From the NCBI GenBank assembly GCA_030628975.1, contig DAOVPZ010000001.1:1-37911 (forward strand): a DNA stretch of 37,911 nt, in the 5' to 3' direction. A program made the position numbers and the translations under genes. This document shows positions 9,080 to 26,323 of the stretch, piece by piece (position 1 is the stretch's first letter; every line of letters begins with the position of its first letter). This stretch comes from Candidatus Cloacimonadota bacterium (GTDB lineage: Bacteria > Cloacimonadota > Cloacimonadia > JGIOTU-2). Under the pieces are notes generated by a model, which was not told where the DNA came from, did no database searches, and worked only from the letters and a program-made list of their open reading frames with translations.

Positions 9080-10240
9080 ATGGATAAAGTTGAAGAGTTA
9101 ACCAGATTTCGTAAATTTGTGCTTAATAATCTACATCCTCTTACACAATTTAGTATCAACCCAGGAGCAGATATTGTTATAAATACTGAAAGTGATGAGT
9201 ATTTTTATGCTGCCCGAAGTCGTCTTATATCCTTAATTGAGTATGGTGTAATAAAAGATCCTATACTTGTGCTAATGCTGGGATGGTTTGAAAGCCAAAA
9301 AGAAGGGCACTGGGCTAAACGTTCATGTGCAGCAATTAAGGACTCCCCCCAACTCCCATCTTGCCTTAAAGCGATAATTAAACACATTATTAGAGGTGGT
9401 GCGTTAACTAATCTTCTCTTGGGCAAAGAGAAAGGATTCCCCCGTAAATTTAATGTTATCTTTAGATTTAAAGATAATGGAAATAAACCAGTAGAATTTT
9501 TCTTTTGGAAATCTGGAAGGTTGCGGAAGGTTGAAATTTATTTGCCTATAAAGAATACAGATTCTTGCCAAGAAAATAAGCAAAATTCTAATATTATCAA
9601 AAATATTCAAAACCAGGGAAATTACAAGGGCTTCTATTTTTATGATAATATGGATTTTATCAAGAAAGCAGAAGAAAAAAAAGCAAAAAATGAGAAAGAA
9701 GAGTTAAAGGACGATAAATTACAAAATTACCTTAATGAATTACCAGAGGAACTTTGTAATAAGTTTAAAGTTTTCAAAGATATAACTAGTGATGAATTAT
9801 GGGAAGAGTGGAAACCAGACCCAGATTTCTATAAGAATTTAATTAATAACGCAGTTAATTTTTATAAAATAATTAAGTTAACGGGAGTAGATATTTACTG
9901 GTTAGGGTATTACTTACAACCTACTCATATAAGGGAGAAATATCTCAATAGAGATAAAATTAAGAAATATGAACCTACAAATACAGAAATAATTATCTGG
10001 GGTAAGGAAGATACTAAGGTTGATGAGGATATGATTGATACATTTGCATCAATCATTACTAAGAGTGATGGAATATATGATTGGGTGGAGGAAGGCAAAT
10101 TGACAATGCGCCAACATGCTCTACGCTCTGCTGTTGCCGCGATTATGGCAAGAAATATGTCGCATAATATAGGGAGTCATGTGCTGAATTACCTATCAAA
10201 TCCGGAGGAATTAGATAAAATATGGGTAATCAAAAAATGA
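9080..10240 (+). CDS. Histidine-kinase-like protein, N-terminal segment ending in an H-box-like helix (probably the 5' part of one ~1170-codon gene)
   Basis: The segment ends ...RQHALRSAVAAIMARNMSHNIGSHVLNYLSNPEELDKIWVIKK*. The stop directly follows the A6 run at 10232-10237. With one A fewer, the frame reads through into 10284..12614 (..WVIKNEIEKLLSKEFKGITKMDKLKRE..). Confidence 0.6.
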   Translation: MDKVEELTRFRKFVLNNLHPLTQFSINPGADIVINTESDEYFYAARSRLISLIEYGVIKDPILVLMLGWFESQKEGHWAKRSCAAIKDSPQLPSCLKAIIKHIIRGGALTNLLLGKEKGFPRKFNVIFRFKDNGNKPVEFFFWKSGRLRKVEIYLPIKNTDSCQENKQNSNIIKNIQNQGNYKGFYFYDNMDFIKKAEEKKAKNEKEELKDDKLQNYLNELPEELCNKFKVFKDITSDELWEEWKPDPDFYKNLINNAVNFYKIIKLTGVDIYWLGYYLQPTHIREKYLNRDKIKKYEPTNTEIIIWGKEDTKVDEDMIDTFASIITKSDGIYDWVEEGKLTMRQHALRSAVAAIMARNMSHNIGSHVLNYLSNPEELDKIWVIKK

Positions 10241-10283
10241 GATTGAAAAACTGCTATCAAAAGAATTCAAGGGAATTACTAAA

Positions 10284-12614: not shown

Positions 12615-13822
12615 ACGTAAATATTTTTGTTTTTGGAAGAGAAAATTATTTTGAAACATTATTAAATGATGGTGAAAAAGGCGCATTAGGATTACAGACT
12701 TCTGTAATTGATGGAGAAAAAGTAATTTTTAAAAAAAAGGACAATAATTTAATTTATTTTTTACCTTACAATTTAACAAAAGAAGCATTTTTTTCTTACC
12801 TTGAGGGACAATCTGATTTAAATATAACGATTTATATTAATTCTGGCCATCTTCCTAATGACACTACCTGGAGAGAAAAAGGTAGTAGTGAAAGTGTGAA
12901 ATGCCTATCTACTGAAAAGAGGGATGCAATTTTTAGAAAAATGGTAATGGATCCTCTTATTATTATTATGACCCTTGAGAAGACTTCTTTAGCTGGTGAA
13001 GGTGAAGGTGAAATAGTAGGCTATGCTGAATGGGTTGAAATATTGAAGTGTAATAAAGCAAAATTCTATAATGATTCATTAAACCAAATCACAAAAAACC
13101 ATAGTGTTAGAATAGCAGAAATTACCCTTGACAATTACACGGTTTTATTTGTTAAAGAAAATGATTATGAGAACAAAGGAGAGCAGCTCCTTAACAATAT
13201 ATTGATCAATAATAAATGGAAATATATAGAACCTAAATATGTTGCAGTTCATGCCCTTAAACATTATATAAAAGATATATCTCAATTCAAAAATAAAGTA
13301 AAATACATATGCGATTTTCATCATTACACAGAACATGAAAGCAAAATAGATTACGAATTTTGTCAGCTTTTACTGGAATTTTTAAAATATTTTGAAAATA
13401 AACAAAGCGCAGAAGCTAAAAATAATTGTGAAGAAATAATAAAAAAAATAGAGGAATTAAGCAAAAAAATTGTTCTTGAAAGATTAACCCTTCTCAAGCA
13501 CCGCATTATAACACTCTGGCTCCCTCTTGCAATAGATATTCAGGGATTAAGTGAAGTTAATGAAGATAATGCCCAGAATTATTTTGAAAAAATAAAAGAA
13601 GATAATTATTTAAATGAAATTAAATATAGTATTAACAAACAAATTGATGAATTGAATGAAATTTTGAATGGAAAGAAGAAAATAAATAAGGGTGAAAAAG
13701 AATATTTAAACACACTTATTGGTGAATTTAATACTAAAAGCGAGATCAAAGACTTAAACCAAGAGTATTTAAATCAGGGAGACGATCTTTTCCTCCCTAA
13801 ATGGTTAGAAAGATTTGCATAA
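12611..13822 (+). CDS. Hypothetical protein (403 aa, helical/coiled-coil-rich C-terminal half)
   Basis: A long ORF with a 4-nt ATGA overlap with the upstream gene. I recognise no motif. Confidence 0.6.
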   Translation: MNVNIFVFGRENYFETLLNDGEKGALGLQTSVIDGEKVIFKKKDNNLIYFLPYNLTKEAFFSYLEGQSDLNITIYINSGHLPNDTTWREKGSSESVKCLSTEKRDAIFRKMVMDPLIIIMTLEKTSLAGEGEGEIVGYAEWVEILKCNKAKFYNDSLNQITKNHSVRIAEITLDNYTVLFVKENDYENKGEQLLNNILINNKWKYIEPKYVAVHALKHYIKDISQFKNKVKYICDFHHYTEHESKIDYEFCQLLLEFLKYFENKQSAEAKNNCEEIIKKIEELSKKIVLERLTLLKHRIITLWLPLAIDIQGLSEVNEDNAQNYFEKIKEDNYLNEIKYSINKQIDELNEILNGKKKINKGEKEYLNTLIGEFNTKSEIKDLNQEYLNQGDDLFLPKWLERFA

Positions 13823-13855
13823 AACAATTAATGAACATATTGAGCATTATAAAAA

Positions 13856-14602
13856 ATGAATAACCTTGTTTATGCCATCTTGCCAAACAAATTATTTAAT
13901 GCTTTCCAGAGATACTTACATTATATTTTTAAAATAGAAATTAAGAAAGGAATCCCTTCACAATTTAAGCAAAATGGAAAATTTTATCTTTTTATTCATG
14001 AACAAGAATTAGAAAATTGCGATATTTTTAAATACGATATTAAAGTTGTAATTTTGGGATATAATAATAATAAGCAGAAAAATTATATTAACTTACTAGA
14101 TCTTAAAAATTTTAATAGTAATCTATCTCAAATTTTTAGTTCCAATAATATTGATAATCAAGAGACAACTGATATCCGTCATCAAATTCGAGAGAAATTA
14201 GTTACATTTTTTAAAGGACATGGTGAAGAATCGCTTTTGTCATGTTTATATTCAACTCAATATTATTTATCAAATGGACCTGTTCTTTTTCAAAAAGGGA
14301 ATATCAACTATGATGAATACAAAAAAACTTTTCTTTTACCCGGTATTGAAAATTGGGAAATTTTTTCAAATAGATTAAATAAATATAAAAATTATCTGTT
14401 TGTAGCTGGTTTTGAAAATGAAGTAGGGGAAGTAATATTAAAAACAAAGCAGTTTCAAATCTTTGTTGATAAACTGAAAATTATGACTAAATCCCAATTG
14501 GAAGAAACAAGCCTAAATACATTTGTGGAAGAAAATATTTCTATAATAAAAGAAATTGATAATATTTTTTCTAATATTTATAGGAAGTTAGAAAAGAAAT
14601 GA
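13856..14602 (+). CDS. Hypothetical protein (248 aa)
   Basis: A same-strand ORF 33 nt after the previous one. I recognise no motif. Its stop overlaps the ATG of the receiver remnant (ATGA at 14599-14602). Confidence 0.55.
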   Translation: MNNLVYAILPNKLFNAFQRYLHYIFKIEIKKGIPSQFKQNGKFYLFIHEQELENCDIFKYDIKVVILGYNNNKQKNYINLLDLKNFNSNLSQIFSSNNIDNQETTDIRHQIREKLVTFFKGHGEESLLSCLYSTQYYLSNGPVLFQKGNINYDEYKKTFLLPGIENWEIFSNRLNKYKNYLFVAGFENEVGEVILKTKQFQIFVDKLKIMTKSQLEETSLNTFVEENISIIKEIDNIFSNIYRKLEKK

Positions 14603-14727
14603 AGTATAACATTTTAGTAGTAGATGATAATGAACTCAATGTAGAATCAGTCGCAACCTATCTGTTCAATTTCATTGCTCTTTTTTTTCTAAACTATGTT
14701 CTCAGAGTTTTACATGCATTTGAATAA
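14599..14727 (+). pseudogene. Truncated remnant of a response-regulator (REC) gene, paralogous to the 5' end of 16468..17889
   Basis: MKYNILVVDDNELNVESV... compares with MKYNILVVDDNKQFVESI... at 16468. By eye the nucleotide similarity is about three quarters over the first ~52 nt. The sequence then diverges and stops after 42 codons. Confidence 0.6.
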
Positions 14728-14742
14728 CTTAAGATAAAAATT

Positions 14743-16050
14743 ATGAAAAATAATAGATTAACTATTGAGGACATTATAAGGCTTGCTGCTCAGGGAGAAG
14801 GAGAAAATATTGAATTTAAGCTCAAACCTGTAAATATTGCTGAAACTATATGTGCTATGGCAAATACTTCTGGAGGTTATATCATTATAGGTGTAGATAA
14901 TAAAGGTAAGTTGACAGGTATTGCAGAGAAGGAGCAGGAAAGAATACCAGCAGACATTCAAGGTTTGATTCCTACACCCCATATTTCTATAATAAATGTA
15001 AAAGTAAATGAGAAAAATGTTTTAGTTATTAATGTAAAAAAGAGCAAAAGGTTTGTTACTCTTGGTAATAGTGCATACATAAGGATAGGTAGGAGTAATA
15101 AGGCTCTTGATTTAGAAGAACTGGCTATAATTAGTATTGAAGAATTGAAGCTAACCTTTGATTCTCTACCATCATCTGTTTCTAAATCAACTTTAAATCC
15201 ATCTCTTGTCCAGGAATATCTGGAGCTGAGGGAGAAGGTAAGAGGCATACCCATAAGAGGAAATCTTGAAGAAAATATTAAAAAATTGAAAATCATAAAA
15301 GGAGAATATTTGACCATATCTGGTCTTCTCTTTTTCACAGATAAGCCACAAGAACATCTACCCTGGACAGGCATAAGAGTGATTGAAATGTATGCAGATG
15401 GTGAGACAAAAGAGATTCTGGAATTTGACGGTCCTGTATGGAAAGTGATTGATAAAGTCTATGATACACTCATAGTCAAAATTCCAAGAACAGAAATTAG
15501 AACAGGAACCAAAAGAGAGTCCTTTCTTATTTTCCCGGAGGAATCAATAAGGGAAGGAATAATAAACGCAGTTGCGCATAGAAATTACAGAATAAGAGGT
15601 GATATTAGAATTTTCCTATCCCCTGAATCTCTTAGAATAAAAAATCCAGGAAGTTTTCCACCAGGAGTTGACATTGAAGACCCGGAACATATTCCAAGAA
15701 ACCCCATAATTTGCCAATATCTTTATGATATGGGTTATATAGAAAAATATGGATTTGGAATAATAAGAATGAGAAAAGCTGTTGAAGATCATCCAACTGC
15801 ATCAATTGATTTTAATATAGGCGCTTTGAAGACAGAAGTGATATTTGAAAGTAAAAAGAAGGCAACACTAAATGAAAATGAGCGAATAATATTGACACTC
15901 TTAAGAGCAGAACCTCTATCAAGCAGTCAGATTGCTTCACATCTAAAAATGAGCAAAGTAACAATACTTAAGAAACTTGATAGACTGCAGTCAATGAACC
16001 TGATTAAAAAGATAGGCATAGGAAGGAAAACTAAATATACTGTTTCGTAA
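14743..16050 (+). CDS. AlbA_2 (Schlafen-like) / HATPase_c_4 putative DNA-binding protein with C-terminal winged HTH (often annotated RecG-like or 'ATP-binding protein')
   Basis: N-terminal EGENIEFK ... ICAMANTSGGYIIIGVDNKGKLTGI (AlbA_2 pattern); central INAVAHRNY ... IRIKNPGSFP ... RNPIICQYLYDMGYIEKYGFGI; C-terminal ILTLLRAEPLSSSQIASHLKMSKVTILKKLDRL (wHTH). Confidence 0.75.
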   Translation: MKNNRLTIEDIIRLAAQGEGENIEFKLKPVNIAETICAMANTSGGYIIIGVDNKGKLTGIAEKEQERIPADIQGLIPTPHISIINVKVNEKNVLVINVKKSKRFVTLGNSAYIRIGRSNKALDLEELAIISIEELKLTFDSLPSSVSKSTLNPSLVQEYLELREKVRGIPIRGNLEENIKKLKIIKGEYLTISGLLFFTDKPQEHLPWTGIRVIEMYADGETKEILEFDGPVWKVIDKVYDTLIVKIPRTEIRTGTKRESFLIFPEESIREGIINAVAHRNYRIRGDIRIFLSPESLRIKNPGSFPPGVDIEDPEHIPRNPIICQYLYDMGYIEKYGFGIIRMRKAVEDHPTASIDFNIGALKTEVIFESKKKATLNENERIILTLLRAEPLSSSQIASHLKMSKVTILKKLDRLQSMNLIKKIGIGRKTKYTVS

Positions 16051-16204
16051 AGGGCGTATTAACGAAAAATGTTAACGAAAAGGTTTACGAAAAGTTTACA
16101 TTAAAAAACTCGGGACATCCCATTAAATAGGAAAAGATTTAACCCCAGTGAAATAAATAAAGATTTCACAGGGCAGGAGGGGAAGGCAACGGAGCATGAA
16201 AATA

Positions 16205-16308
16205 ACACACCCCACGGCTGAAGCCGTATACCCTCTTGCTAGAGAGGAATTCCAAAAAATCCCCTCTTGAGAGGGGTGGACACCGACTTGTCGGTGGACG
16301 GGGTGTGT
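16205..16308. other. GC-rich multi-hairpin element (candidate structured RNA or miniature repeat element)
   Basis: The closing stem ACACACCCC (16205-16213) / GGGGTGTGT (16300-16308) encloses four hairpins: ACGGC-TGAA-GCCGT, CCTCT-TGCTAG-AGAGG, CCCCTC-TTGA-GAGGGG and CACCGAC-TT-GTCGGTG. It shares CACCGACTTGTCGG and GGACGGGG with 1794-1838. Strand is unknown. Confidence 0.3.
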
Positions 16309-16467
16309 AACCTGCGTGCTATTTACATATGAAACCTACATGTCCTGAAAGAAACTCGGGACACAAAGGAGCATGAAAATTATTAAGGATTTAAAATAGT
16401 TTTATTTTATGAATAAAATATTGTTCGTGTTAGTTCGTGTGGTTCGTGGCAAAAAAAGGATTTTCAG

Positions 16468-17889
16468 ATGAAATATAATATCCTAGTTGTAGATGATAAT
16501 AAACAATTTGTAGAATCTATAAAAATTGCTTTAAAGAAATTTCATATCATAAAAGCATTTTCAATTGAAGAAGCAAAAAATAAGATAAACTCAGAAATAG
16601 ACCTTGTTTTGCTGGATTTAGTATTTGATGAAAACAATCCTGATTATTTGCAAGGGCTGGAATTCTTACCTTATATTCACAAAAATTTTCCGGATTTAAT
16701 TGTAGTAATTATGACAAATTATCCTTCCAAGGACAAAATTGTAGAATCTATTAAATCCGGTGCAGAAGATTTTTTTATTAAAAAAGAATTGGAATGGTCG
16801 GAATGGGAAAAAAGAATAGAAAATTATTGTAGAAATTCACAGAAAATCCGTGAATTAAAAACAAAAAAAAAGGAATTAGAAGAGAAGTATGATGATTCTG
16901 AAATTATTGGAGTTAGTCCTGAAATAGAATTTGTAAAACGGAAACTTCGGGATATAGCACAGCATAGCGATGATATAACTGTCTTTATTCAAGGAGAGAC
17001 CGGAACAGGGAAAAATCTGGCAGTTAAGTATTTCAGAAAATATTCAAAAAGGAAAGAGAAACCATATAAAGAATTTTCTATTTTTGAATTAGCCGATTCT
17101 GTGTTAGAAAGTGAATTATTCGGACATATAAAGGGCTCTTTTACTGGTGCAGATAAAGATAAGATTGGTCTTTTTGAAGCAGCAAATGGAGGCATACTCT
17201 TCCTTGACGAAATTGGTGACTATGATTTAAAAACACAGAAAAAAATTATGAGGTTTATGGAAGATAAGACTATTAGTCCTGTTGGGAGTAACAAAAGTAA
17301 AAAGTTAGACCTCCAATTAATAATGGCAACCAATCAAGATATTCCAGAACTTATCAAAAAAGGTAGATTCAGAGAAGATTTATATCAGAGAATCAATAGG
17401 ATAAAAATTGATTTACCTTCATTAAGAGAAAGAAGAGAGGATATTAAGATTCTAACAGATTACTTTTTTAAACATTTTAGAATAAAAGAAAAAACCAATC
17501 TTAAAGTAATATCAAATGAAGTATATGATATCTTTTACAATTACCAATGGCCTGGTAATGTTAGAGAATTGCAATCAGTTATCTGGGAAGCCTGCACAAA
17601 TGCACGTTTATACAATGATTCAATATTAACTAACAAGCATTTAAGAAAAGAACTAACATCAAAAAATTCTATATTTCAAAACGAAAATGATGATTTAGTA
17701 GTAAAAAAGGCAGAGCTGGAATTAGAAGCGATTGATAAAGCATTAGAAAAAACTTACGGGCGTAAAGCAGAAGCTGCAAAATTGTTGGGAATGAATGCAG
17801 ATCAATTAAGGTATAGGGTATTGAAATTCTATAAAGAAAATAAAATAGATATTAATAAATTTAGAAATATAAGGAAGTATTATGTGTAA
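16468..17889 (+). CDS. Sigma54-dependent response regulator (REC - AAA+ sigma54-interaction domain - Fis-type HTH; NtrC family)
   Basis: REC: ILVVDDN, LVLLDL, VVIMTN, FFIKK. AAA+: Walker A GETGTGKN, GAFTGA-type loop GSFTGA, Walker B ILFLDEIG, FREDLYQRI, WPGNVRELQ. C-terminal GRKAEAAKLLGMNADQLRYRV. Confidence 0.9.
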   Translation: MKYNILVVDDNKQFVESIKIALKKFHIIKAFSIEEAKNKINSEIDLVLLDLVFDENNPDYLQGLEFLPYIHKNFPDLIVVIMTNYPSKDKIVESIKSGAEDFFIKKELEWSEWEKRIENYCRNSQKIRELKTKKKELEEKYDDSEIIGVSPEIEFVKRKLRDIAQHSDDITVFIQGETGTGKNLAVKYFRKYSKRKEKPYKEFSIFELADSVLESELFGHIKGSFTGADKDKIGLFEAANGGILFLDEIGDYDLKTQKKIMRFMEDKTISPVGSNKSKKLDLQLIMATNQDIPELIKKGRFREDLYQRINRIKIDLPSLRERREDIKILTDYFFKHFRIKEKTNLKVISNEVYDIFYNYQWPGNVRELQSVIWEACTNARLYNDSILTNKHLRKELTSKNSIFQNENDDLVVKKAELELEAIDKALEKTYGRKAEAAKLLGMNADQLRYRVLKFYKENKIDINKFRNIRKYYV

Positions 17890-18337
17890 TGCAGACAAAC
17901 TGTTAAAATCGATTATGAACTATGTAAAATATTTAAATACAACTGATAAAAAATTAGATATAAAGATCAATGGAAATAATACTATGACCTTAAATAGTAA
18001 AACTATAAATTTTCAGTATATATTTAATATTGAAGATGATTTATCATTGAGAAAAATAGTTCAAAATTTTGAAGAAAATAATATTACCGATTTTTATGTT
18101 ATAATAGATTTATTCAAAAATATTAATGAATGGATTACAATTGAATATGTTCGTAAATTACAATTAACAATAGATTATTTGGAAAATCATAAAATGGGTA
18201 AAAGACTTTGTCCTTTTGGGGAGAATACGAAAAATTCCTTTGAAATAACCCTGCAATATTTTCATAATCAATCTTTCAAGGATATTTTAGATAAAACCAC
18301 TATAAATAATATAAATATTTATATCTTAAAGGCATAA
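17882..18337 (+). CDS. Hypothetical protein (151 aa)
   Basis: There is an 8-nt overlap with the upstream activator gene, and the next gene starts 3 nt later. I recognise no motif. Confidence 0.55.
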   Translation: MCNADKLLKSIMNYVKYLNTTDKKLDIKINGNNTMTLNSKTINFQYIFNIEDDLSLRKIVQNFEENNITDFYVIIDLFKNINEWITIEYVRKLQLTIDYLENHKMGKRLCPFGENTKNSFEITLQYFHNQSFKDILDKTTINNINIYILKA

Positions 18338-18340
18338 GTA

Positions 18341-21211
18341 ATGGAAAAGATAAAATTTGAGAAATTATTTTTTAAATGTTATAATGTATTAATAAATACT
18401 AAAAAATTAGGTGAATATTTAATAAAAATTGAGAATTATGAAATAACAGAAAAGAATAAAAAAAAGACTAAAAAATCAAAAAAAATTAAATCCAAAGATA
18501 GCAAAAATAATTTTTTAAAAGAACATAAAACAATTATTACTTCAGAAAATTTATCAGATAAGTTATTTGATATTTTAATTAATCATTATAAATCTTCTAG
18601 AGCAGAAAATTATCAAAGTGAATCAACAAGTATAGCTCTCTCTACCTCAACTCATGAAGAGAAGAGAGATTTGGAAGATGAAGAATATAAATGTAATATA
18701 GATGAAGTATTTAAGAACAAAATTTTTCTTTCACTTCATTGGTTTTATGAAGATATGGCTCGTAATCTTGCATGTTCATTTGAAAATTTTAACATAGATA
18801 ATCAAAATAATAAAATTTTAATTATTGATGATAACATTGAGTCAGGTAAATTGAAGAAAAGATATCCACAAATTATCAGAATAATTGAGTACAAGCTCAA
18901 TGAATTAAAAAATTCTAAAAATACAAAAAAAGTAATAAGAGCTGATGTGATAACTGGAGTTAATAATGTAATAGATTTATATGAGCAACTTAATAATTTA
19001 GATAAAATTAAATTAGAAAATGATATTGGGGAAAAGAGAACTTTAAAGTTAAAAGACGTTAAAGTCAAAACTGATGAAAATAGGAGCAATACTACAGATT
19101 TAGAAAAATATCGTTATATCTTTGTTGATCTTTTGATTGGAGAAGAAAATATTGGTTTACAGATTATAAATAGATTAAGGGAACTTCAGGATTATAATTC
19201 CGAACTTAAATATGAAATCATTGCTGTGAGCAGAAGTACCAACACAGAAGATATACAAAAGGCTTTAAATTTTGGTGCTTCTTTTTACATTCCCAAAGAA
19301 CGAATTTTTTCAATTCCTTACCGAATAGCACAATTAGGACCAGAACCGCCTAATTTTATTAATATTGATAAGTCTTTTAAATCTTTGGCAAAATTGCCAA
19401 GAAGAATTCAAAAGTTGCTTCAAACTTCATACTTGAGTTTTAATGGTAAAAAAGATTATAATTGGATTAACTTACTTCCAAAAGCTGATATTCATGTTCA
19501 TTTTGGTGGCTATATGGATGCAAAGATTACTTTGAAACTTTCTTTTTATACAGCTTTACTATCACTTTTAAATTATTTTATTCACGACACTTTTGAAATT
19601 ATTGATAGCAATCTTAGCAAATTGTGGAATGGATTGAATGGGGAAAAGATTAGTGCCGATAATAAGAAGGAATTGCAAAATCTATTGCAAGATATCCAGA
19701 ATCAAGCAAAAATTTATGGAGAATATGCAAAGGATTTATATAAATTATCAAGAATAAAATCAAATACTGGAAATATAGAAATTGAACAAGAACTTAAAAA
19801 TATAAAATCACCTGAGATTTTTTTTGAATATATCGCAGATAAATACAAACACAAATTTTATGGATTAAAACCGTTTCAAGTAATCAGTATTTTTAATGTA
19901 TTCCTCTCTAAAAGTACGGATAGTATTCCAAAAACAGATAACTCTAACCAGAAAGATTTAATGAATATATTAAATTTTGAATTAAATAACAACAATAAGA
20001 AAGACGGGCAAAAAATTATTTTAACGCTTGATAATACTACAAAGGAGATTAAGGAAATTGATGTTAGTAGCCCTAAATTAACAGACAATTTAATAAAGTT
20101 AATTCAGGCAACTCATGGACATAGCATTGATAAGGCTGTTGGAGGTATAACATTAAATTCATTCCTTAAAGGTTGTGATTATACAGGTAGTGATATTCTT
20201 CAAACCAAATATGCAATAAGTGAAGCTGTCCGATATGTTTGCAAGAAAGCTATGAAGGATAATGTTTATTATTTACCATTAAGAGCAACTCCGTTAAATT
20301 TTTGCAGGGGAGGTTTATCAGAAGAGGAAGTTTGGAAAGCAATTAGGACTGGATATAAAGAATTTATAGAAAAAGATATAAATAAAGATGATTATTTTTT
20401 GATTCTCACAATCAAGATAGCTCTAAAACGGCATTATGAAAATAAAGCTATAAAGAAGAATATTAAATTTGGTCTCAAATATAGTTTGGAAAGTCAAATG
20501 AAAGATCATAACCAAAAAAATCAAGATATCAAATATTTTAACTCGAAAGGTTTACCTTCTAAAGATTTTTATAATATTTTGCCTTTTGTTTCTGGATTTG
20601 ATTTAACGGGATTGGAGATAGACTATAATCCTAAAAAATTTAGAGAAGAATTTAAAGAGATATTTGAGCATTGTATACCATTAACAATTCATGCAGGAGA
20701 AGAGACTCCAGCAAAATATATTTGGGAGGCTGCTTATGAACTTCATGCAGATAGAATCGGACATGGTTTATCGTTATCTACCCCTGATGCAAATAAATTG
20801 CGAGACAGATTTAAAGATTTCGATATTTCAATTGAACTGTGTCCTTCAAGCAATTTCTTAACTCAGGAAGGGTTTATGGTTTTTAATCGAGAAACATATT
20901 ATAAATCAAAAAAGGGATCAGAAAGCAACGAACCTAAAGGTGAACAATACCCTTCTTCTGTTTTTCTGGAAAACAATCTTAATTTTGTGGTGTGTACTGA
21001 TGATCCAGCTGTTCAAAATACAGACCTATCTACAGAATATCTGTGGATTTCTGAAATGACATTCAGAGAGCAACAAAAAGGTATAACTAAATGGGAAGCA
21101 TTAAGCTTAATCAGAAATGGGTTTAAATATTGCTTTTTACCTTATGATGTTAAGAGAAAATTACTTAAAATTATTGATCATAAAGTATATAAATTATTAG
21201 AAGGAGAATAA
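18341..21211 (+). CDS. Receiver (REC) domain - adenosine/AMP deaminase family fusion protein (956 aa)
   Basis: REC: ILIIDDN (~18815-18835), YIFVDLLIGEENIG, IIAVSRS, FYIPKE. Deaminase signatures appear in order: ADIHVHFGG (~19484-19510), LTIHAGEE (~20683-20706), ADRIGHG (~20748-20768), VVCTDDPAV (~20987-21013). The N-terminal ~160 aa are unknown and include a Lys-rich tract. Confidence 0.8.
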   Translation: MEKIKFEKLFFKCYNVLINTKKLGEYLIKIENYEITEKNKKKTKKSKKIKSKDSKNNFLKEHKTIITSENLSDKLFDILINHYKSSRAENYQSESTSIALSTSTHEEKRDLEDEEYKCNIDEVFKNKIFLSLHWFYEDMARNLACSFENFNIDNQNNKILIIDDNIESGKLKKRYPQIIRIIEYKLNELKNSKNTKKVIRADVITGVNNVIDLYEQLNNLDKIKLENDIGEKRTLKLKDVKVKTDENRSNTTDLEKYRYIFVDLLIGEENIGLQIINRLRELQDYNSELKYEIIAVSRSTNTEDIQKALNFGASFYIPKERIFSIPYRIAQLGPEPPNFINIDKSFKSLAKLPRRIQKLLQTSYLSFNGKKDYNWINLLPKADIHVHFGGYMDAKITLKLSFYTALLSLLNYFIHDTFEIIDSNLSKLWNGLNGEKISADNKKELQNLLQDIQNQAKIYGEYAKDLYKLSRIKSNTGNIEIEQELKNIKSPEIFFEYIADKYKHKFYGLKPFQVISIFNVFLSKSTDSIPKTDNSNQKDLMNILNFELNNNNKKDGQKIILTLDNTTKEIKEIDVSSPKLTDNLIKLIQATHGHSIDKAVGGITLNSFLKGCDYTGSDILQTKYAISEAVRYVCKKAMKDNVYYLPLRATPLNFCRGGLSEEEVWKAIRTGYKEFIEKDINKDDYFLILTIKIALKRHYENKAIKKNIKFGLKYSLESQMKDHNQKNQDIKYFNSKGLPSKDFYNILPFVSGFDLTGLEIDYNPKKFREEFKEIFEHCIPLTIHAGEETPAKYIWEAAYELHADRIGHGLSLSTPDANKLRDRFKDFDISIELCPSSNFLTQEGFMVFNRETYYKSKKGSESNEPKGEQYPSSVFLENNLNFVVCTDDPAVQNTDLSTEYLWISEMTFREQQKGITKWEALSLIRNGFKYCFLPYDVKRKLLKIIDHKVYKLLEGE

Positions 21212-21216
21212 AATTT

Positions 21217-21582
21217 ATGAAGAAAATGCTTTGGATTTCAATTGTTATAGTTTTTGTTTTTGGATTGGGATTAATTGGCTTGTATGTTTTTCAAAATATC
21301 ACAACAACACCTATATTTGTTACATCAATTGGAAAGATAATTTCTAATCCACGTCCATATGAAGATAAGGTTGTGAAGGTTTATGGTGAAGTAACAAAAC
21401 GAAATTCATTTGTGTTTGTAAAATATTTTTTGCTAAAAGATAAAACAGGTGAGATAGCAATTGTTACAAAAAAGGCTATGCCATCAAAAGGTACGAAATT
21501 AAAAGTAAAGGGTAGAGTAAAAGAGAGCTTTTCTATTGGTGATTATCAATTATTGGTTATAGTACAAGAGGATATAAAATAA
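21217..21582 (+). CDS. Membrane-anchored OB-fold-like small protein
   Basis: An N-terminal TM helix WISIVIVFVFGLGLIGLYVF is followed by a beta-rich region VKVYGEVTKRNSF...KDKTGEIAIVT...KLKVKGRVKE, typical of small OB-fold (BOF/tRNA_anti-like) proteins. Confidence 0.55.
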   Translation: MKKMLWISIVIVFVFGLGLIGLYVFQNITTTPIFVTSIGKIISNPRPYEDKVVKVYGEVTKRNSFVFVKYFLLKDKTGEIAIVTKKAMPSKGTKLKVKGRVKESFSIGDYQLLVIVQEDIK

Positions 21583-21689
21583 CTTGCAGAAATATAAGAT
21601 AATATAAATGCTTAAGTTTATTTTACTTATCATTTATAAAATTACTTGAGTATCAATTAGGAATTGAATCTACTTTTTCATTTTTTAGA

Positions 21690-21893
21690 AAATTTTACCA
21701 ATTATCACTATCAAGAATTTTGGATTCTTTATATATCTTCAAAAATCTTCAATTATTTTTTTAGGATCAATTTCCTGAATCTCAAGTAAATCAATATCTT
21801 CTTGTATAAGATTTGTAAAATATCCTTTGCTTCTTTAAACTTATTATTATTTCCTGTAATGAATGTAATACAATCGTAGTTCATTAAATTCAT
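21690..21893 (-). pseudogene. Decayed 5' remnant of a non-canonical purine NTP pyrophosphatase (ITPase, HAM1/RdgB family)
   Basis: The minus strand reads M(NLM)NYDCITFITGNNNKFKEAKDILQ. After a 1-nt frame slip in a short A run it continues NLIQEDIDLLEIQEIDPKKIIEDF*. This matches the HAM1 N-terminal pattern (xxFxTGNxxKxxEaxxIL ... D.xEiQ...eI), as in human ITPA VFVTGNAKKLEEVVQIL...IDLPEYQGEPDEI. No further HAM1 blocks follow downstream. Confidence 0.45.
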
Positions 21894-21929
21894 TCTTTTC
21901 TATTTAATTCAAACAGTAATTTTTAAATA

Positions 21930-24515
21930 TTACGGTAGTTTATACTCTTCCCACTTCTTTCTTATTTCTTTTTGTTGAGGAGTCCACGAAGCTTCAATCA
22001 ATGAGTTTAGGATGTTCAGATAGCCATCATTATCTTCAACTTCCTGAAGAAATTGAAAGCCGTTAAAGTATTCTTTCGTTTCTTCTGCAGAGGTTCCCAT
22101 AATATCAGTTTCAATTTCATCAATTCTATAATAGTAATTCAAAACTTTAGTTGAAAGCCATTGAGCAGAACCTTCTGTTAAAAACTTATCTTTTCTTGCT
22201 AAAATTCCAACTTGATCCTGCCAATTATGTATATATTCATGTGTTATTACTCCAATTGCATGTTGCTGTCTAAGAGGAATAACCCTTACATTCTTACTAT
22301 TATATATACCTATAGCTCTATCAAGTTTTTTAACGACTTTTAAGGGAACCGGATTTTGAATCCTTATATCCAGATTATTTTTTAATATTTCAGTAATTTT
22401 TCTTTTGATATCATTGTAAAAGTTTGTTAATTTTTTGATATCTTTTATATTTCCTTTTCTAAATTTTATTAGATTTTCATAGCTTTGAATCTCTTTATTT
22501 CCATATATTCTTGCAAAATACATACCGAATTGTTCTTTATTCAAACCCTTAACATCTTGATGATACGCATAATAAATGCATTTACTGCAGCCATTTTCAC
22601 ATGGACATCCTTTTATGGCTTCATAGACAAATTTAAACAATTTTTGGGCTGTACTATTGAAATCAAGATAAAAATTTTTTTCTACAAAATGATATAAACT
22701 ATCCTGATGGGGGAAAATATAGATGTATCTTGAATCATTAATTATAAAGATGAGATTAAAAGGATTTGAAAAAAGTAGGGGTAAAAAATTATACATTGCA
22801 TGTTCAAATTCTTTAGGAAATTTAGTTTCTAATCTTACTCCTCTTACATTTTTTGAAAATATATAGGGATTGCTAAATATTTCAGGAGCATTTCGAGATT
22901 CTTGAGAATAATCTGTAAATAAAATATTTCCATTTTGTTCTAAGTATAATTTAGCTTTTATTGGTGTTACTTTATAATATTTTGTTTCCTTTTCCGTTCC
23001 CATTATTTCAATTTCATCTGTAAATTTAAAATCAATGATTGGGGTAGATCTTGCATAGATTTCACCAGGGGATATAAACTTAATATCTGTTCCTTTTGGA
23101 CTTTCTTCTAAATTGGTTGAAAAACATTTTTCGTTTTCAAAATAGATTTTTCCCTGATATACCTCAAAAGGAAGTAAATCCTTATCAAGTTCTCGATTTC
23201 TTCCAGAAGGATATTGAACATTAATAAAGTTTTTTGAGATAGAACCCCAGTAGGGGATAAAAGTTTCTTTATCCCTTTTGCCACAAATATCTTTCCTAAT
23301 TCTTACAAACATATCTTTTAGTAAATCAGTTTCAGATAGAGGGAAAAGCTTTCGACCAGGTAACTTTTCTATTAGTTTATAATGAGACCACATTAACAAA
23401 TAAGACAATAAATCATCCGGCGGGATAATGAATACACCACCGTTATTTTTAACAAAATTATTAACATTATATTCTAAATCTTTAAAATCTCTAGGCATTC
23501 CAATTATCATTAGATCGTCAAATTTTTTCTGACCGCTTTGGGTAAAACTAGCTAAGTCATCAATTATTGTAATATTTGTTTTTAAAGATAGATGCTGTCG
23601 TATACTGCTTGTTAATCTATCATAAGCAAACCAGATTAATATTTGCACTTCCCCTAAATCCTCTAAAATATTTATTAAGTTACTCACTTCTTCTAAATAA
23701 TTCTCTCTTCTATAACTAAAAGTGTTATTATCGGCTAACAGCTCAACTTTAAACGGAGGAATCCAAAAAAATATATCATTATTATTATTAAATTCTTTTA
23801 TTGAAATGAGCTCAAGAGTTCTATGAATATCTAATATATTACTAAATGATGGAAAATCTTCATCGGAAGAGGAGGTTATAGCAAACCGAGTATTAGAAAA
23901 AAAATCTAATAAGTTGATCAACCGAGTTATAAAGATAATTTCCTTGGGTTTGTATAATTCAATTTTTTCTATTCCAACTAATCCAAGTGAGAATAAAAAA
24001 TCCCTTAGAACTTTATCAGAAGAATATTTCTTTATGCAATTATAAAAAATTTCAGCTGTTGTGATAACAATTTCAGGATAATGTTTTAATTTTTCAATTA
24101 AATGTTCGGATGAGTCTGAAAAGGTAATAGTAAATGGTATAGTTTCTATAATTTTTTGTATACTGGATCTTAACCTTTCACTTTTTTCTTCGAGTTGAGT
24201 TGTATTAGGTAAAAGATAGATAATGGATTGCCCTTGAAAAAAAAGAGTATAAACAGAAAGAATATCAATTGTAGTTGATCTACCTGAACCATATCCACCA
24301 GCAATGAAAATATCTTTATCATCTTGATATGCTAATATAGCTTTTTCCTGAAAGTCAAAAAGTCTTATTCCGATAGCATTCAATACATATTCAAATTGGG
24401 TATTAAGATTATACTTTTCATTTATTTTAGAAGCTTGTATATCTCTATAAAGTAAAAGTTGCCCTTTATATTTTTTATGAGTTTTTATATTTCTAATTAA
24501 CTCGTCATTGCTCAT
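21930..24515 (-). CDS. SF2 helicase-like N-terminal domain / DUF1998-type Cys-cluster domain / HExxH metallopeptidase-like C-terminal domain fusion (861 aa)
   Basis: LFDFQEKAI plus a P-loop-like IAGGYGSGRSTT (~24273-24299), IYLLPNT and VITTAEIF. No clear DExH box is visible (LVGIEKIELY occupies its position). Cys cluster GCPCENGCSKC (22578-22610). HExxH...E block VITHEYIHNWQDQVGILARKDKFLTEGS (~22170-22253). Confidence 0.6.
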   Translation of the reverse strand: MSNDELIRNIKTHKKYKGQLLLYRDIQASKINEKYNLNTQFEYVLNAIGIRLFDFQEKAILAYQDDKDIFIAGGYGSGRSTTIDILSVYTLFFQGQSIIYLLPNTTQLEEKSERLRSSIQKIIETIPFTITFSDSSEHLIEKLKHYPEIVITTAEIFYNCIKKYSSDKVLRDFLFSLGLVGIEKIELYKPKEIIFITRLINLLDFFSNTRFAITSSSDEDFPSFSNILDIHRTLELISIKEFNNNNDIFFWIPPFKVELLADNNTFSYRRENYLEEVSNLINILEDLGEVQILIWFAYDRLTSSIRQHLSLKTNITIIDDLASFTQSGQKKFDDLMIIGMPRDFKDLEYNVNNFVKNNGGVFIIPPDDLLSYLLMWSHYKLIEKLPGRKLFPLSETDLLKDMFVRIRKDICGKRDKETFIPYWGSISKNFINVQYPSGRNRELDKDLLPFEVYQGKIYFENEKCFSTNLEESPKGTDIKFISPGEIYARSTPIIDFKFTDEIEIMGTEKETKYYKVTPIKAKLYLEQNGNILFTDYSQESRNAPEIFSNPYIFSKNVRGVRLETKFPKEFEHAMYNFLPLLFSNPFNLIFIINDSRYIYIFPHQDSLYHFVEKNFYLDFNSTAQKLFKFVYEAIKGCPCENGCSKCIYYAYHQDVKGLNKEQFGMYFARIYGNKEIQSYENLIKFRKGNIKDIKKLTNFYNDIKRKITEILKNNLDIRIQNPVPLKVVKKLDRAIGIYNSKNVRVIPLRQQHAIGVITHEYIHNWQDQVGILARKDKFLTEGSAQWLSTKVLNYYYRIDEIETDIMGTSAEETKEYFNGFQFLQEVEDNDGYLNILNSLIEASWTPQQKEIRKKWEEYKLP

Positions 24516-26323
24516 TGGTTTGCCTTCTTGAATTGAAATAGAGATAATAAAACAATTATGTTGAGTTCTTGATTTTCTGGAAATTCTTTTACAACATTCT
24601 TCTCAATATCTACTCCTTGAGGAATAAAATAATTCTTAGGAATAAAAAGTTTTTTTTGAATAGATAATTCACGATAATCAATCACATCATTAAAATCCCA
24701 TAATAAACCTTTTTCTTGATGTTTATAATAATCATTAAAATACACAGCAATTTCTTGTGTTAGTGAGCCAAGCCTAAAAGATTTGAATTGCTTAAAATAC
24801 TGCTGCGAAAAATAATCATTTAGATCAGATTTATCCAAATTAAGATATATATTAAAATCATCGAGATGAATATTTTCAAAATCATTAGCTGTTGGGATAA
24901 AGAAAATCATCTTCTGTTTGGTAGAGAAAATATTATCTGTTAAATCCTGAGGAGAATTTTCTGTAATTAGCTTTAGACTATCTAAAGATCTTTGTACATA
25001 TTCATATGAGATATTAGTTATCTTTAAGTTAATATAATTAAGATTTCGTTTCCAAATGGAAAGTGGGATTTTCTTATAATCTTGATTAAGGACATTAATT
25101 ATCTTTGCATAACCTTCATCACAAAGATCTTTAATTTCTTTTTTCTTGTTTGATTTTTTCTTTATCCATTTCAATAAAATAACTGTTGATGATATAATTA
25201 ATGCTATTAGAATTGAAGATGGGAGGTCTAATTTTACTTTAAAATGTATTAAAAAGAAAATTATAATTAATAGGATAATGAATAAGTTTAAAATTGTTTT
25301 ATAAGCAAATATGAATTTAAAAAAATTCTTAAATCTCTTATTATATTCATCTAACTCGTCGTTAATTGAATTGGAAAATTTTTGAAATTGTTCTGTAAGA
25401 TTTTCCTTTGCTTCTTCTCTGATTTTTTCAATAAAATTAAAGTTTTGGGACAATGATCTTTTTAATTCTCTAATTTTATGTTTGATATTTTCCTTGAAAT
25501 CGACTAATTTAATCAGTAAGTTTTTGGCACCTTTTATTCTTAACTCTGGTGAAATTGTAGTTATTCTGTTAGATAATTTTTGATTACGAATCGATGTAAG
25601 TATCTTAACTATTTCATACATTTTATTATCATTCAAGTTTTCATCAATTATATTATCAATGGTTCTTTCATCAACTTCAATTTTTAGTTCCTTATCGACA
25701 TCAATATCAAAAGGATTATATAAAAGATAATTAATTTTGAATTGAGTAATATCTAAATCTTCTTTGATAATAGTATATTCAGGAAGAGAAATTCCATTTT
25801 CTTGAGAAATAGTTTTTTGGTAAACCTCATTCATTTTCTGGGGCAATTTAAGAATATTGTCTGGAAGAAAAGTTCTTATTGATAGGACACCATTTAGGTC
25901 GGTTTCTAAATCAGGAAAGATTTGATAAACGGAATAAAGAATCAGCTCTGTTTCTGCATAAGAGATAGGTGTTTTATCAGCTAAATGATAATCATAAAAA
26001 AGAGGACCAGATATCAAACCAGATTTTTTTTTATTACTAATGACATTTTCAATATTTTTATTCCTTTTATGTAAAACGAATAAGACTCTATTATGACTAT
26101 GAACATTGAAAAAATTCCAGAATTTATTGTTTTCATCAGGAAATTCATCTTCATCCTGAATATCTAATATGATAACTATCTCATCTTTTTTTTTAATTTC
26201 TAATTTTAAATTGTTTATTATATCAACTAAATTTCCACAGAAAGCATTAATTCCGAAGTAATTTGAGAACTTAAGATTTCCACCTAAAATCCATAAGATT
26301 TTATTTTTCTTTCTATAATCCAC
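24512..26323 (-). CDS. Hypothetical membrane protein (603 aa, two central TM helices)
   Basis: Central hydrophobic segments are FIFAYKTILNLFIILLIIIFFLIHF and ILIALIISSTVILLKWI. Flanking regions are helical and Lys/Asn-rich. The gene overlaps both neighbours (4 nt and 11 nt). Confidence 0.55.
   Translation of the reverse strand: MDYRKKNKILWILGGNLKFSNYFGINAFCGNLVDIINNLKLEIKKKDEIVIILDIQDEDEFPDENNKFWNFFNVHSHNRVLFVLHKRNKNIENVISNKKKSGLISGPLFYDYHLADKTPISYAETELILYSVYQIFPDLETDLNGVLSIRTFLPDNILKLPQKMNEVYQKTISQENGISLPEYTIIKEDLDITQFKINYLLYNPFDIDVDKELKIEVDERTIDNIIDENLNDNKMYEIVKILTSIRNQKLSNRITTISPELRIKGAKNLLIKLVDFKENIKHKIRELKRSLSQNFNFIEKIREEAKENLTEQFQKFSNSINDELDEYNKRFKNFFKFIFAYKTILNLFIILLIIIFFLIHFKVKLDLPSSILIALIISSTVILLKWIKKKSNKKKEIKDLCDEGYAKIINVLNQDYKKIPLSIWKRNLNYINLKITNISYEYVQRSLDSLKLITENSPQDLTDNIFSTKQKMIFFIPTANDFENIHLDDFNIYLNLDKSDLNDYFSQQYFKQFKSFRLGSLTQEIAVYFNDYYKHQEKGLLWDFNDVIDYRELSIQKKLFIPKNYFIPQGVDIEKNVVKEFPENQELNIIVLLSLFQFKKANQ

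Follow-up and report, generated by a model that had tools for sequence, protein, structure and literature searches.

The stretch analysed here (the window) comprises 37,911 nucleotides (nt) of contig DAOVPZ010000001.1 from a Candidatus Cloacimonadota bacterium and carries near its middle a cassette of four open reading frames (ORF1 to ORF4), the third of which encodes a protein that is, judged by its sequence and its modelled fold, a deaminase of the Cad1 type in which a phospho-receiver takes the place of the CARF sensor. The cassette supplies the output of a modular cluster of about 24 kb (7020-30792); a sequence-only reading of the same DNA had confined the system to the four genes, which make up only the middle of this conserved region. 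The model that we favour, with modest confidence, is that a split histidine-kinase-like phosphorelay would turn on a Cad1-type deaminase of ATP/dATP together with a σ54 activator, that Ham1 would serve as reset or drain, and that these parts would belong to a modular conflict-type cluster together with an FtsZl1-vWA-helicase block. Support for reading the cluster as one system is comparative throughout.

ORF3 is built from an all-helical N-terminal domain, a receiver (REC) and a linker that leads into an amidohydrolase barrel (Table 1). An alignment of ORF3 with ten homologues (A1) was the basis of an AlphaFold model (pLDDT 72, pTM 0.68) and of the residue conservation given here. The motifs ILIIDDN (159-165), YIFVDLLIG (259-267), IIAVSRS (293-299) and FYIPKE (315-320) mark the receiver, and HVHFGG (385-390), IHAGEE (783-788), RIGHG (805-809) and CTDDP (885-889) mark the deaminase, which matches Pfam A_deaminase at 1.1e-36. 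As the sequence-only reading had proposed, the receiver and the adenosine/AMP-deaminase-fold domain are both real, all metal and catalytic residues are present, and every motif that it quoted for ORF3 and ORF1 lies at the expected residues. The modelled receiver shows the (βα)5 succession of strands (E) and helices (H), namely E158-162, H171-187, E201-204, H207-226, E257-262, H271-285, E292-297, H302-311, E315-318 and H319-332. Among homologues of 41-74% identity D263, S297 and K319 of the receiver are invariant and D164 is near-invariant; H385, H387, H784, E787, H808, D887 and D888 of the deaminase are invariant in the same alignment. The large insertion that had been ascribed to the receiver falls away, as residues 222-251 form a variable low-confidence loop of ~30 residues; the truly large insertion, ~200 aa long and helical, sits within the deaminase barrel (~395-600). 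The N-terminal domain is restricted to the close family, its HMM matching only 10 close relatives.

The closest known relative of ORF3, which the earlier reading had missed, is Cad1, as sequence, profile and fold all indicate. The best phmmer match in the PDB is Cad1 (9c67, 6.9e-23), followed by other CARF-ADA chains; the housekeeping deaminase Add reaches 1e-12 at best. The alignment to Cad1 in this search also takes in the ~45 residues of linker that precede the HxH motif. The PADLOC model CARF_ADA recognises ORF3 at 1.8e-81 over model positions 226-602 only, unlike true Cad1 proteins, which cover positions 1-603. A CARF domain is absent from ORF3, the sensor being the (βα)5 receiver and the CARF_ADA match starting only at model position 226. 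When the AlphaFold model was submitted to Foldseek, the top 37 PDB matches were all Cad1/CAAD, which also bears out the deaminase fold claimed before. Cad1 is described to convert ATP to inosine triphosphate (ITP) and to arrest growth (PMC11645235), and Cad1-type enzymes differ from classical adenosine deaminases (ADA) by the replacements Asp19→Gly and Asp296→Asn in mouse-ADA numbering (PMC12669630). Every member of the ORF3 family carries Gly at the Asp19 position (G389), as Cad1 does, which argues for a 5'-phosphorylated substrate. By analogy to Cad1 the product of ORF3 is likely ITP or dITP, and the enzyme is probably switched by phosphorylation.

A word-indexed search with ORF3 returned only 12 relatives, and an exhaustive profile search with its family through 1.84 billion representatives returned 448 matches at E ≤ 1e-30, seven of which constitute the close ORF3 family. 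Among the best 150 of these 448 matches, 45 further proteins, mostly of 980-1270 aa, carry the same receiver module before the deaminase. Genuine Cad1 proteins rank directly after the receiver-deaminases (REC-ADA), and the matches of ~700 aa are full-length Cad1, with PADLOC scores of 614-697 bits over model positions 1-603 and Cas_NE0113 CARF matches. From these sequences, REC-ADA would represent a sizeable sister architecture of Cad1, with at least 50 representative clusters, apparently unrecognised so far as can be told. REC-ADA was not found in the GTDB species-representative genomes, where a scan with the ORF3 family gave only Add genes of ~340 aa from metagenome-assembled genomes of Bdellovibrionota, and scans of viral contigs with the deaminase and kinase-like alignments yielded no matches, nor did PHROGs. 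The claim that a receiver-fused deaminase is undescribed stands in the literature searched, which likewise held no Detocs system with a deaminase and no link of FtsZl1-vWA to defence; as this literature was mostly without subscription papers, the absence is not proof.

ORF1 had been regarded as a complete NtrC-type protein, and it is one, with Response_reg (1.5e-11), Sigma54_activat (9.9e-54), AAA_lid_14 (1e-18) and HTH_8 (1.4e-9) as Pfam domains. The receiver residues D9/D10, D50, T83 and K105 are followed by an AAA+ domain with Walker A and B, the AAA lid and a Fis-type HTH, and the motifs VVDDN (7-11), LVLLDL (46-51), GETGTGKN (176-183), GSFTGA (223-228) and ILFLDEIG (243-250) are in place. 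As the NCBIfam matches, which belong to the NtrC family (NtrC, ZraR, AtoC and others), all fall below the equivalog cut-offs, ORF1 is not an orthologue of any named regulator. Its AAA+/HTH part matches the PADLOC model RtcR_PspF2 at 8.6e-87. Across the related metagenomic loci discussed below (numbered with the prefix L), the identity of ORF1 orthologues is 93% in L001, 61-65% in L003, L004, L005 and L008, 57.5% in L040 and 48.6% in a fragment in L007, and the activator is the best conserved gene among the close loci. The activator remains a partner of the deaminase even where the latter is only ~28-30% identical (L007, L040), as one would expect from the pairing proposed in the sequence-only reading.

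That reading had also brought in RADAR as an analogy, under which ORF1 would be an RdrA-type partner that assembles with the deaminase and activates it. All that speaks for the analogy is that one operon encodes both an AAA+ ATPase and a protein of the adenosine-deaminase fold; it fails on both partners: ORF1 is an ordinary NtrC-type activator with the full σ54-activator signature (GSFTGA, Fis-type HTH), and the deaminase is of the Cad1 type instead of the RdrB type. RdrB is absent from the 29 PDB sequence matches and the top 50 fold matches of ORF3, PADLOC returned no RADAR model, and three loci (L030, L031, L033) hold a REC-ADA without an activator. We therefore regard a RADAR-like pair as effectively refuted.

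The non-coding stretch upstream of ORF1 (16051-16467) contains repeats in common with L001, CTCGGGACA…CATTAAATAGGAAAAGATTTAAC and, twice, GGAGCATGAAAA, besides GC-rich hairpins and three copies of TTAACGAAAA at 16061-16096. Just before the start codon of ORF1, GTTCGTG occurs three times with 10-bp phasing, and L001 has three copies of CTCTGTG in the same place. Rfam gave no match on 13000-22500, these structured repeats included.

The four genes had been described as tightly packed on one strand, and coordinates, strand, the 8-nt overlap and the gaps of 3 and 5 nt proved exact. ORF2, which has no match in Pfam, PADLOC, NCBIfam, PHROGs or PDB profiles, is not the orphan it was taken for, as a small homologous gene lies in the same place in related loci; transitive BLAST (alignment A5) connects the genes at this position in L001, L003, L004, L005 and L008. 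ORF4 had been called a membrane-anchored OB-like protein. Its N-terminal transmembrane (TM) helix is upheld by prediction, and the OB assignment is weaker, the OB models staying below threshold in three of four family members, next to weak matches to CcmE and DUF4131. ORF4 gave nothing significant in Pfam, PADLOC, NCBIfam, PHROGs or PDB profiles and is 52-89% identical across L001-L004 (alignment A4). The N-terminal motif [LI]xx[AS][FIL]xR[YF][LIV]x[FYH] is common to the ORF2 family, a conserved 248-aa protein encoded upstream of ORF1 and the N-terminus of a REC-HD protein in L032. Going by sequence, it could be a common docking helix. Homology between ORF2 and the 248-aa protein was considered and rejected, since only the 15-residue N-terminal motif is shared and the hhalign probability is 5.5%.

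The cassette travels with genes of the cluster in at least 15 related metagenomic loci, and the activator, ORF2-like and ORF4-like genes recur beside the deaminase homologues of the close family, which answers the earlier suggestion that conserved neighbours be looked for. In the close loci (L001-L005, L008) the order is Peripla_BP_6, a variable enzyme, one or more kinase-like proteins, a ~260-aa and a ~250-aa protein, activator, ORF2-like, REC-ADA and ORF4-like; vWA, Tubulin_2, a ~600-aa protein with two TM helices and a DEAD/MZB helicase follow on either strand, in some loci together with Ham1. ADA identity across the close loci is 41-74%, the 74% being to L001. The Tubulin_2, 603-aa and DEAD proteins of the window are 48%, 45% and 60% identical to those of L003 versus ~23% to those of L001; modules must therefore have recombined. 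L007, whose ADA is 30% identical, encodes a C-terminal fragment of the activator, ADA, AAA, Ham1, vWA, Tubulin_2 and vWA. L040, which was found via the deaminase alone (ADA ~28%), encodes activator, REC-ADA, Ham1, His_Phos_1, vWA, Tubulin_2 and vWA, the activator overlapping the start of the ADA gene by 8 nt. The association of ADA, Ham1, vWA and Tubulin_2 thereby recurs at three degrees of divergence (window family, L007, L040), and Tubulin_2 adjoins REC-ADA in L001-L005, L007 and L040.

The Ham1 proteins of L003, L005, L007 and L040 all keep the catalytic Asp (VEDT), like human ITPA, which together with RdgB served as reference. With this residue kept, they resemble active ITP/dITP pyrophosphatases, which would suit a deaminase that makes ITP/dITP. 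A Kongming-type sensor role for Ham1 was rejected on the same ground, and the Kongming-type logic considered in the sequence-only reading is not borne out, as no SIR2 domain was found in L001-L008 or L040 either.

Further from the window, the effector slot is swappable and is occupied by REC-ADA, REC-HD, REC-asparaginase or a PNP-type gene. A metagenome scan anchored on the family of the 776-aa kinase-like protein described below, supplemented by two further look-ups, gave the loci with a kinase module. In L030, L031 and L033 a REC-ADA of 1053-1124 aa comes immediately after this module, without activator; the L030 protein matches PADLOC CARF_ADA at 9.8e-81 and Pfam A_deaminase at 1e-43. A solo receiver directly follows REC-ADA in L031 and L033, and an MgtC-family protein comes after it in L030, L031 and L033. 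In L032 the kinase module precedes a Schlafen-type gene, a 141-aa protein and the REC-HD protein (10085-12499), which shares the 'YIPKER..S.PY' junction of ORF3. L027 has the kinase module, then a σ54 activator, PNP_UDP_1 and a histone-deacetylase-family gene (17949-19717), and L041 pairs a REC-asparaginase (1247-2920) with REC-ADA. MNT-HEPN, HicAB, an integrase and a vWA/Pkinase/FHA set occur in or beside related loci.

The kinase-like gene noted near the cassette is indeed conserved. Its 776-aa product belongs to a family of at least 32 full-length proteins from candidate-phylum bacteria and archaea with the invariant motifs ENIxRNSxRHS (N-box-like), YDNxGG (G1-like) and GxWGxKEM (G2-like) (alignment A3); the window protein shows these as ENILRNS (152-158), YDN..G (214-219) and GxWGxKEM (294-301). 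In its AlphaFold model (pLDDT 83, pTM 0.85) the best Foldseek matches are WalK (prob 0.98), HK853, VraS CA, CheB and an NtrC-like receiver protein. The C-terminal domain (residues ~560-776) looks receiver-like with non-canonical acceptor positions, D601-E602-R603, H688/H693 and T726-S727-G728 being invariant. Directly upstream, a 386-aa protein ends in a near-invariant helix, ALRSAVAAIMARNMSHNIGSHVLNYLSNPEEL, that directly precedes the N-terminal helix of the 776-aa protein. This tail is near-identical in 11 loci, on carrier proteins of 237-803 aa, some of them fused to radical-SAM enzymes, and in L004 the H-box-like and kinase-like genes are fused to each other. We infer that the 386-aa and 776-aa proteins form one histidine-kinase-like enzyme, divided between two genes at the DHp hairpin. 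A broken pseudogene was rejected as an explanation for the two ORFs, because the 776-aa family is full-length and stand-alone and the arrangement in two genes with a 13-nt overlap, present in six loci, is the rule. At the junction of the two genes (10160-10300; ~9990-10020 in L027, and equivalents) lies a conserved dual-coding string, …TATGGATAATTTAAAAAAA…, and translational coupling or recoding could operate there. The 'big' protein of L003, L005 and L008 is a different protein that shares the divergent GHKL N-box region. A gene for a 403-aa partner follows the kinase-like gene, and searches with this protein in Pfam, PADLOC, NCBIfam, PHROGs and PDB profiles brought no significant hit.

In the model that we favour, the H-box-like helix of the 386-aa protein and the GHKL ATPase of the 776-aa protein would autophosphorylate on some input, which might reach them through the Peripla_BP_6 lipoprotein and the ABC importer or through the N-terminal, enzyme-like region of the 386-aa protein. 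The phosphoryl group would pass to Asp263 of ORF3 and Asp50 of ORF1. Phosphorylated REC would remodel the deaminase oligomer, as ligand binding to CARF does in Cad1, and ORF3 would then convert ATP/dATP to ITP/dITP, leading to growth arrest or a replication block, with ORF1 in parallel turning on a σ54 promoter. Ham1 ITPase of the active type, as encoded in four related loci, would hydrolyse ITP to IMP and could act as reset, as self-protection or as an irreversible ATP drain. The most likely role of such a system is in conflict, as an abortive-infection-type defence, or in a stress-induced shutdown. Conflict-like traits are the swapping of the effector slot, the recombination of modules, the insertions of toxin-antitoxin, integrase and Schlafen type, and the Ham1 proteins with catalytic Asp.

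A number of observations weigh against this model. The Pfam Response_reg score of ORF3 (4.5e-5, 24 bits) lies below the cut-off of 30.2; the receiver assignment stands nevertheless because of the (βα)5 topology and the conserved acceptor residues. Asp888 is kept in every member of the ORF3 family where Cad1 has Asn, so that the substrate preference may differ from that of Cad1, and substrate, phosphorylation and phenotype of ORF3 are all matters that we infer. The sub-threshold receiver score and the canonical TDD motif are also what one would expect of an ordinary purine-salvage adenosine deaminase with a degenerate pseudo-receiver beside unrelated regulators. This explanation is disfavoured and in our view very improbable, since housekeeping Add is ~340 aa long and scores far lower, the phospho-acceptor set is invariant across homologues of 41-74% identity and gene order is kept at 28% identity; moreover, no salvage genes lie nearby, in agreement with the context given in the sequence-only reading.

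On the side of the relay, the 776-aa protein draws no sequence match in Pfam, PADLOC or the PDB and all its fold matches have E values above 1e-3; the label histidine kinase is therefore only a reasoned guess from the model, and the protein could be another GHKL enzyme. Histidine-kinase-type Pfam domains (HisKA, HATPase_c) are absent across the window. No σ54 promoter of the -24/-12 type was found at the operon starts of the window and of 12 related loci by a strict scan with 2 mismatches, by GG-N10-GC scoring or by a relaxed scan. Within the window the σ54 consensus is not enriched (13 found versus 9.6 expected). One TGG…TTGCA string before the 248-aa gene was rejected as a σ54 site, being wrongly spaced and inside coding sequence.

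As for the cluster, no known defence genes besides the SLFN_AlbA_2-type regulator were detected in the window, and PADLOC matches are confined to the deaminase and activator domains, most components having none. The copy in the window may not be fully functional, as its methyltransferase is frameshifted and its Ham1 decayed. In addition, every locus lies on an AT-rich metagenomic contig and the lineages may be related, and the conserved gene order may therefore partly be inherited synteny.

A Liv-type (LivHMGF) importer stands before Peripla_BP_6 in seven of nine informative loci, which likewise counts against our model and fits solute sensing. The Peripla_BP_6 gene itself is at the head of L003, L005, L006, L008, L027-L033, L036 and L037. 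Lipoprotein and importer could report an external compound to a physiological switch, in which the kinase-like pair would signal to the receiver-deaminase and the σ54 activator and so retune adenine-nucleotide pools, dormancy or, via the tubulin-like/vWA block, envelope remodelling in small-genome, AT-rich bacteria. Such a switch would agree with the classical control of nutrient and stress regulons by σ54 activators, with the membrane remodelling predicted for FtsZl1-vWA operons (PMC2875224), with the MgtC-family proteins of L030, L031 and L033, and with the lack of PADLOC matches for most components and of any on viral contigs. Its weak points are that the deaminase has immune effectors as its nearest relatives of established function, that conversion of ATP to ITP is toxic and no normal regulation (PMC11645235), that L027 and L028 keep Peripla_BP_6 without adjoining permease or ATPase genes, and that, as is typical of conflict systems, effectors are swapped, the cluster recombines internally, its distribution is patchy and toxin-antitoxin or integrase genes are inserted. 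We regard it as unlikely, though a serious contender. The defence role proposed in the sequence-only reading remains plausible but lacks proof, since most loci start with a solute-binding lipoprotein and an ABC importer; the PADLOC matches limited to two proteins and the viral contigs free of matches leave it at the same point.

The genes downstream of ORF4 bear on a third reading, in which the deaminase produces a signal and is not itself the killer. In structure ITP closely resembles GTP, and ITP/dITP made on phosphorylation might serve as second messenger or load the tubulin-like GTPase or another part of the vWA/helicase block, which would then be the true effector, with Ham1 ending the signal. 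REC-ADA, Ham1, vWA and Tubulin_2 are linked in the window family, L007 and L040, the tubulin-like protein retains its nucleotide-binding signatures (GLGGTG and SSGGGTGAGM), and Kongming provides the precedent of an inosine nucleotide as immune signal (bioRxiv 10.1101/2024.12.20.629578). REC-ADA also occurs without a tubulin-like module within ~5 kb downstream (L030) or in the visible downstream part of L031, L033 and L041, and the linked Ham1 proteins are of the active type with Asp, unlike the His-substituted Kongming sensor, with no SIR2 present. We consider this reading improbable. In its most specific form, ITP/dITP would be the ligand or fuel of the FtsZl1 GTPase with its vWA membrane partners, Ham1 the off-switch, and the driver a split histidine-kinase-like enzyme whose phospho-His helix is carried by interchangeable enzyme-like input proteins. 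The output would then be a cytoskeletal or membrane effector gated by inosine nucleotides, a picture to which we give similarly little credence.

The remaining genes of the cluster are listed in Table 1. The methyltransferase, in the slot of the variable enzyme, is split into ORFs of 107 and 150 aa by one extra A at ~8418-8427 (A10, as compared to A9 in L025); in L025, from the same organism, it is intact (315 aa), and the A-run reflects either an assembly error or phase variation. The 248-aa protein is 30-79% identical in L001, L003, L004, L005 and L008 (alignment A6) and has no significant match in Pfam, PADLOC, NCBIfam, PHROGs or PDB profiles. The SLFN_AlbA_2 gene has a 66% identical copy in the same relative place in L032 (8301-9602), and only a 3' remnant (~7072-7460) is left in L001. 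A Ham1 remnant lies in the gap between ORF4 and the helicase and is syntenic with the intact Ham1 gene downstream of the helicase in L003. The helicase is 60% identical to that of L003 and 23% to that of L001, and the 603-aa protein gave no family matches. A σ70-like TTGACA promoter precedes the vWA gene, and the sequence upstream of it is conserved with L001. The N-terminal half of vWA (61% identical) and the promoter region are well conserved with L001 (29464-31001 versus L001 20956-22480) and the adjoining Tubulin_2 is only 24% identical, which places a recombination breakpoint inside the vWA/Tubulin_2 block.

Table 1. Features of the cassette, the surrounding cluster and its flank in the window.
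Feature	Position	Strand	Remarks
122-aa stand-alone receiver at head of Liv-type ABC operon	2214-2582	+	Pfam Response_reg 5.2e-17
373-aa Peripla_BP_6 solute-binding lipoprotein, lipobox ..VSSC	7020-8141	+	Pfam 4e-31; first conserved cluster gene
S-adenosylmethionine (SAM)-dependent methyltransferase, 'variable enzyme' slot	8110-9076	+	Pfam Methyltransf_25/31
386-aa protein, family-variable N-terminal part and near-invariant C-terminal helix	9080-10240	+	H-box-like, candidate phospho-His H362
776-aa putative GHKL (histidine-kinase-like) ATPase with two receiver-like α/β domains	10284-12614	+	family motifs, model
403-aa conserved partner of kinase-like protein	12611-13822	+	homologues of 438-523 aa after 776-aa family gene in L027-L034
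248-aa conserved protein	13856-14602	+	upstream of activator in every close-family locus
435-aa SLFN_AlbA_2 + HATPase_c_4 + wHTH protein	14743-16050	+	Pfam; recurrent, non-universal neighbour
ORF1, 473-aa REC-σ54 activator	16468-17889	+	coordinates confirmed
ORF2, 151-aa small cassette-specific protein	17882-18337	+	8-nt overlap with ORF1 stop
ORF3, 956-aa predicted receiver-deaminase	18341-21211	+	3-nt gap after ORF2
ORF3 residues 1-149, all-helical N-terminal domain	18341-18787	+	AlphaFold helices 3-144
ORF3 residues ~155-335, receiver (REC)	18803-19345	+	D163/D164, D263 acceptor, S297, K319
ORF3 residues ~336-956, Cad1-type linker and amidohydrolase barrel	19346-21211	+	H385, H387, G389, H784, E787, H808, D887, D888
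ORF4, 121 aa, N-terminal TM helix and small β-rich OB-like domain	21217-21582	+	5-nt gap after ORF3
Ham1/ITPase remnant, ~N-terminal 46 residues over two frames, catalytic part gone	21748-21869	-	tblastn with L003 Ham1, 64-67% identity
861-aa DEAD-type helicase, MrfA-like Zn cluster (CxCxxxCxxC), C-terminal HEYIH zincin motif	21930-24515	-	Pfam DEAD 8.6e-7; MZB, Peptidase_M1 weak
603-aa protein, two central TM helices	24512-26323	-	TM prediction; 45% identical to L003
1038-aa tubulin/FtsZ-like GTPase (Tubulin_2, FtsZl1 type), long C-terminal extension	26313-29429	-	Pfam 5.9e-28
442-aa vWA protein, N-terminal signal/TM, MIDAS DISRS, second TM	29464-30792	-	Pfam VWA/VWA_2; first gene of minus-strand block
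Shared N-terminal motif	window 13856-13930, 17882-17940; L032 9650 and 10085		

Upstream of the cluster, the stand-alone receiver, ~4.4 kb before the Peripla_BP_6 gene, is 32% identical to the ORF1 receiver (E 6e-16). It is a possible phosphate sink, its membership in the system being uncertain; stand-alone receivers also occur in L030, L031, L033 and L036. Two 23S_rRNA_IVP genes (bAvd-like four-helix bundles; 3546-3923 and 5818-6186) are interleaved in the LivHMGF-type ABC operon, each abutting a tandem repeat, a 14-mer x3.8 (3919-3971) and GTTGCAG x8.4 (5690-5749), respectively. An isolated ClpB_D2-small fragment ORF lies near the start of the window (424-744). No cas domains were found in window ORFs of at least 100 aa, and no CRISPR-like array in the window.

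If the favoured model is true, ORF3 would be the first nucleotide deaminase under two-component phosphotransfer control. A Cad1-type ATP→ITP effector would have been rewired from cyclic-oligoadenylate to phosphorelay sensing, joining CRISPR ancillary effectors with Detocs-like systems. The cluster would also give a testable handle on the function of FtsZl1-vWA operons, a question standing since 2010, as these are repeatedly linked here to predicted ITP-making and ITP-destroying enzymes, and would expose a previously unannotated kinase-like family of at least 32 members with the putative phospho-His helix on a separate, highly variable protein. A phospho-switchable ATP deaminase might moreover serve as a compact tool for inducible growth arrest. 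Should the system be a solute-responsive switch instead, it would still be an unusual regulation of the adenylate pool.

Among known systems, RADAR shares with the cassette a deaminase of the same superfamily (RdrB), which makes ITP/dITP, and an ATPase (RdrA) encoded beside it; ORF3, however, has no detectable RdrB-specific similarity and the ATPase ORF1 is a transcription activator. Kongming consists of the deaminase KomA, the inactive HAM1 sensor KomB (catalytic Asp→His) and the SIR2 protein KomC, and its deaminase-made inosine nucleotide is the immune signal (bioRxiv 10.1101/2024.12.20.629578). Deaminase-fold and HAM1-family proteins co-occur in our related loci as well, with inosine nucleotides as the likely common currency, but HAM1 keeps its catalytic Asp (VEDT) here, SIR2 is missing and the deaminase is Cad1-type and receiver-fused. 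The FtsZl1-vWA operons predicted to act in membrane remodelling (Makarova and Koonin 2010, PMC2875224) are matched at 21930-30792 by a Tubulin_2 and vWA pair with intact MIDAS and membrane-associated partners. What sets the present block apart from them is that it is linked to a helicase of the DEAD/MZB/zincin kind, to Ham1 ITPase and to the REC-ADA cassette; a search of that paper for a helicase found none. A search of Kaur et al. 2020 found neither Ham1 nor sigma-54, and the deaminases mentioned there are unrelated enzymes. ORF1, for its part, has the full REC-AAA+(GAFTGA-type)-HTH_8 layout of NtrC-family enhancer-binding proteins and resembles the RtcR/PspF-type CARF_AAA_HTH regulators, differing from those CRISPR regulators in having REC instead of CARF as sensor.

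Cad1/CAAD is closest to the ORF3 barrel and pre-HxH linker by sequence, profile and fold, shares Gly at the position of mouse-ADA Asp19, and likewise places an N-terminal Rossmann-like sensor and a linker before the ADA domain. The sensor of ORF3 is a receiver with the D/D/S/K acceptor set instead of CARF, and ORF3 has Asp888 where Cad1 has Asn, an extra helical N-domain of ~150 aa and the ~200-aa barrel insertion. Cad1, a hexamer built as a trimer of dimers whose N-terminal CARF domain binds cA4/cA6, is an effector of type III CRISPR-Cas, whereas the window has no cas genes or CRISPR arrays and links ORF3 to a σ54 activator, a kinase-like pair and the tubulin-like/vWA block. Detocs is composed of the histidine kinase DtcA, the receiver buffer DtcB and the receiver-effector DtcC, with PNP (80% of systems), REase, TOPRIM and TM as published effectors; a deaminase is not among them. 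The cluster shares with Detocs a receiver with phospho-acceptor Asp (the invariant D263 in ORF3) fused to an effector, here predicted to destroy nucleotides, and the swapping of the effector; a candidate kinase-like sensor and, in several of our loci, solo receivers would fit the same logic. In contrast to Detocs, the effector is a deaminase, the kinase candidate is split, carries a non-canonical GHKL domain and is no DtcA homologue, and a σ54 activator and many more genes are added, the system being known from its DNA alone. Effector swapping, the stand-alone receivers and the kinase-like protein nevertheless make Detocs the closest functional analogue. Cad1 and Detocs were each known before; what would be new here is the combination of a Cad1-type effector with Detocs-like control.

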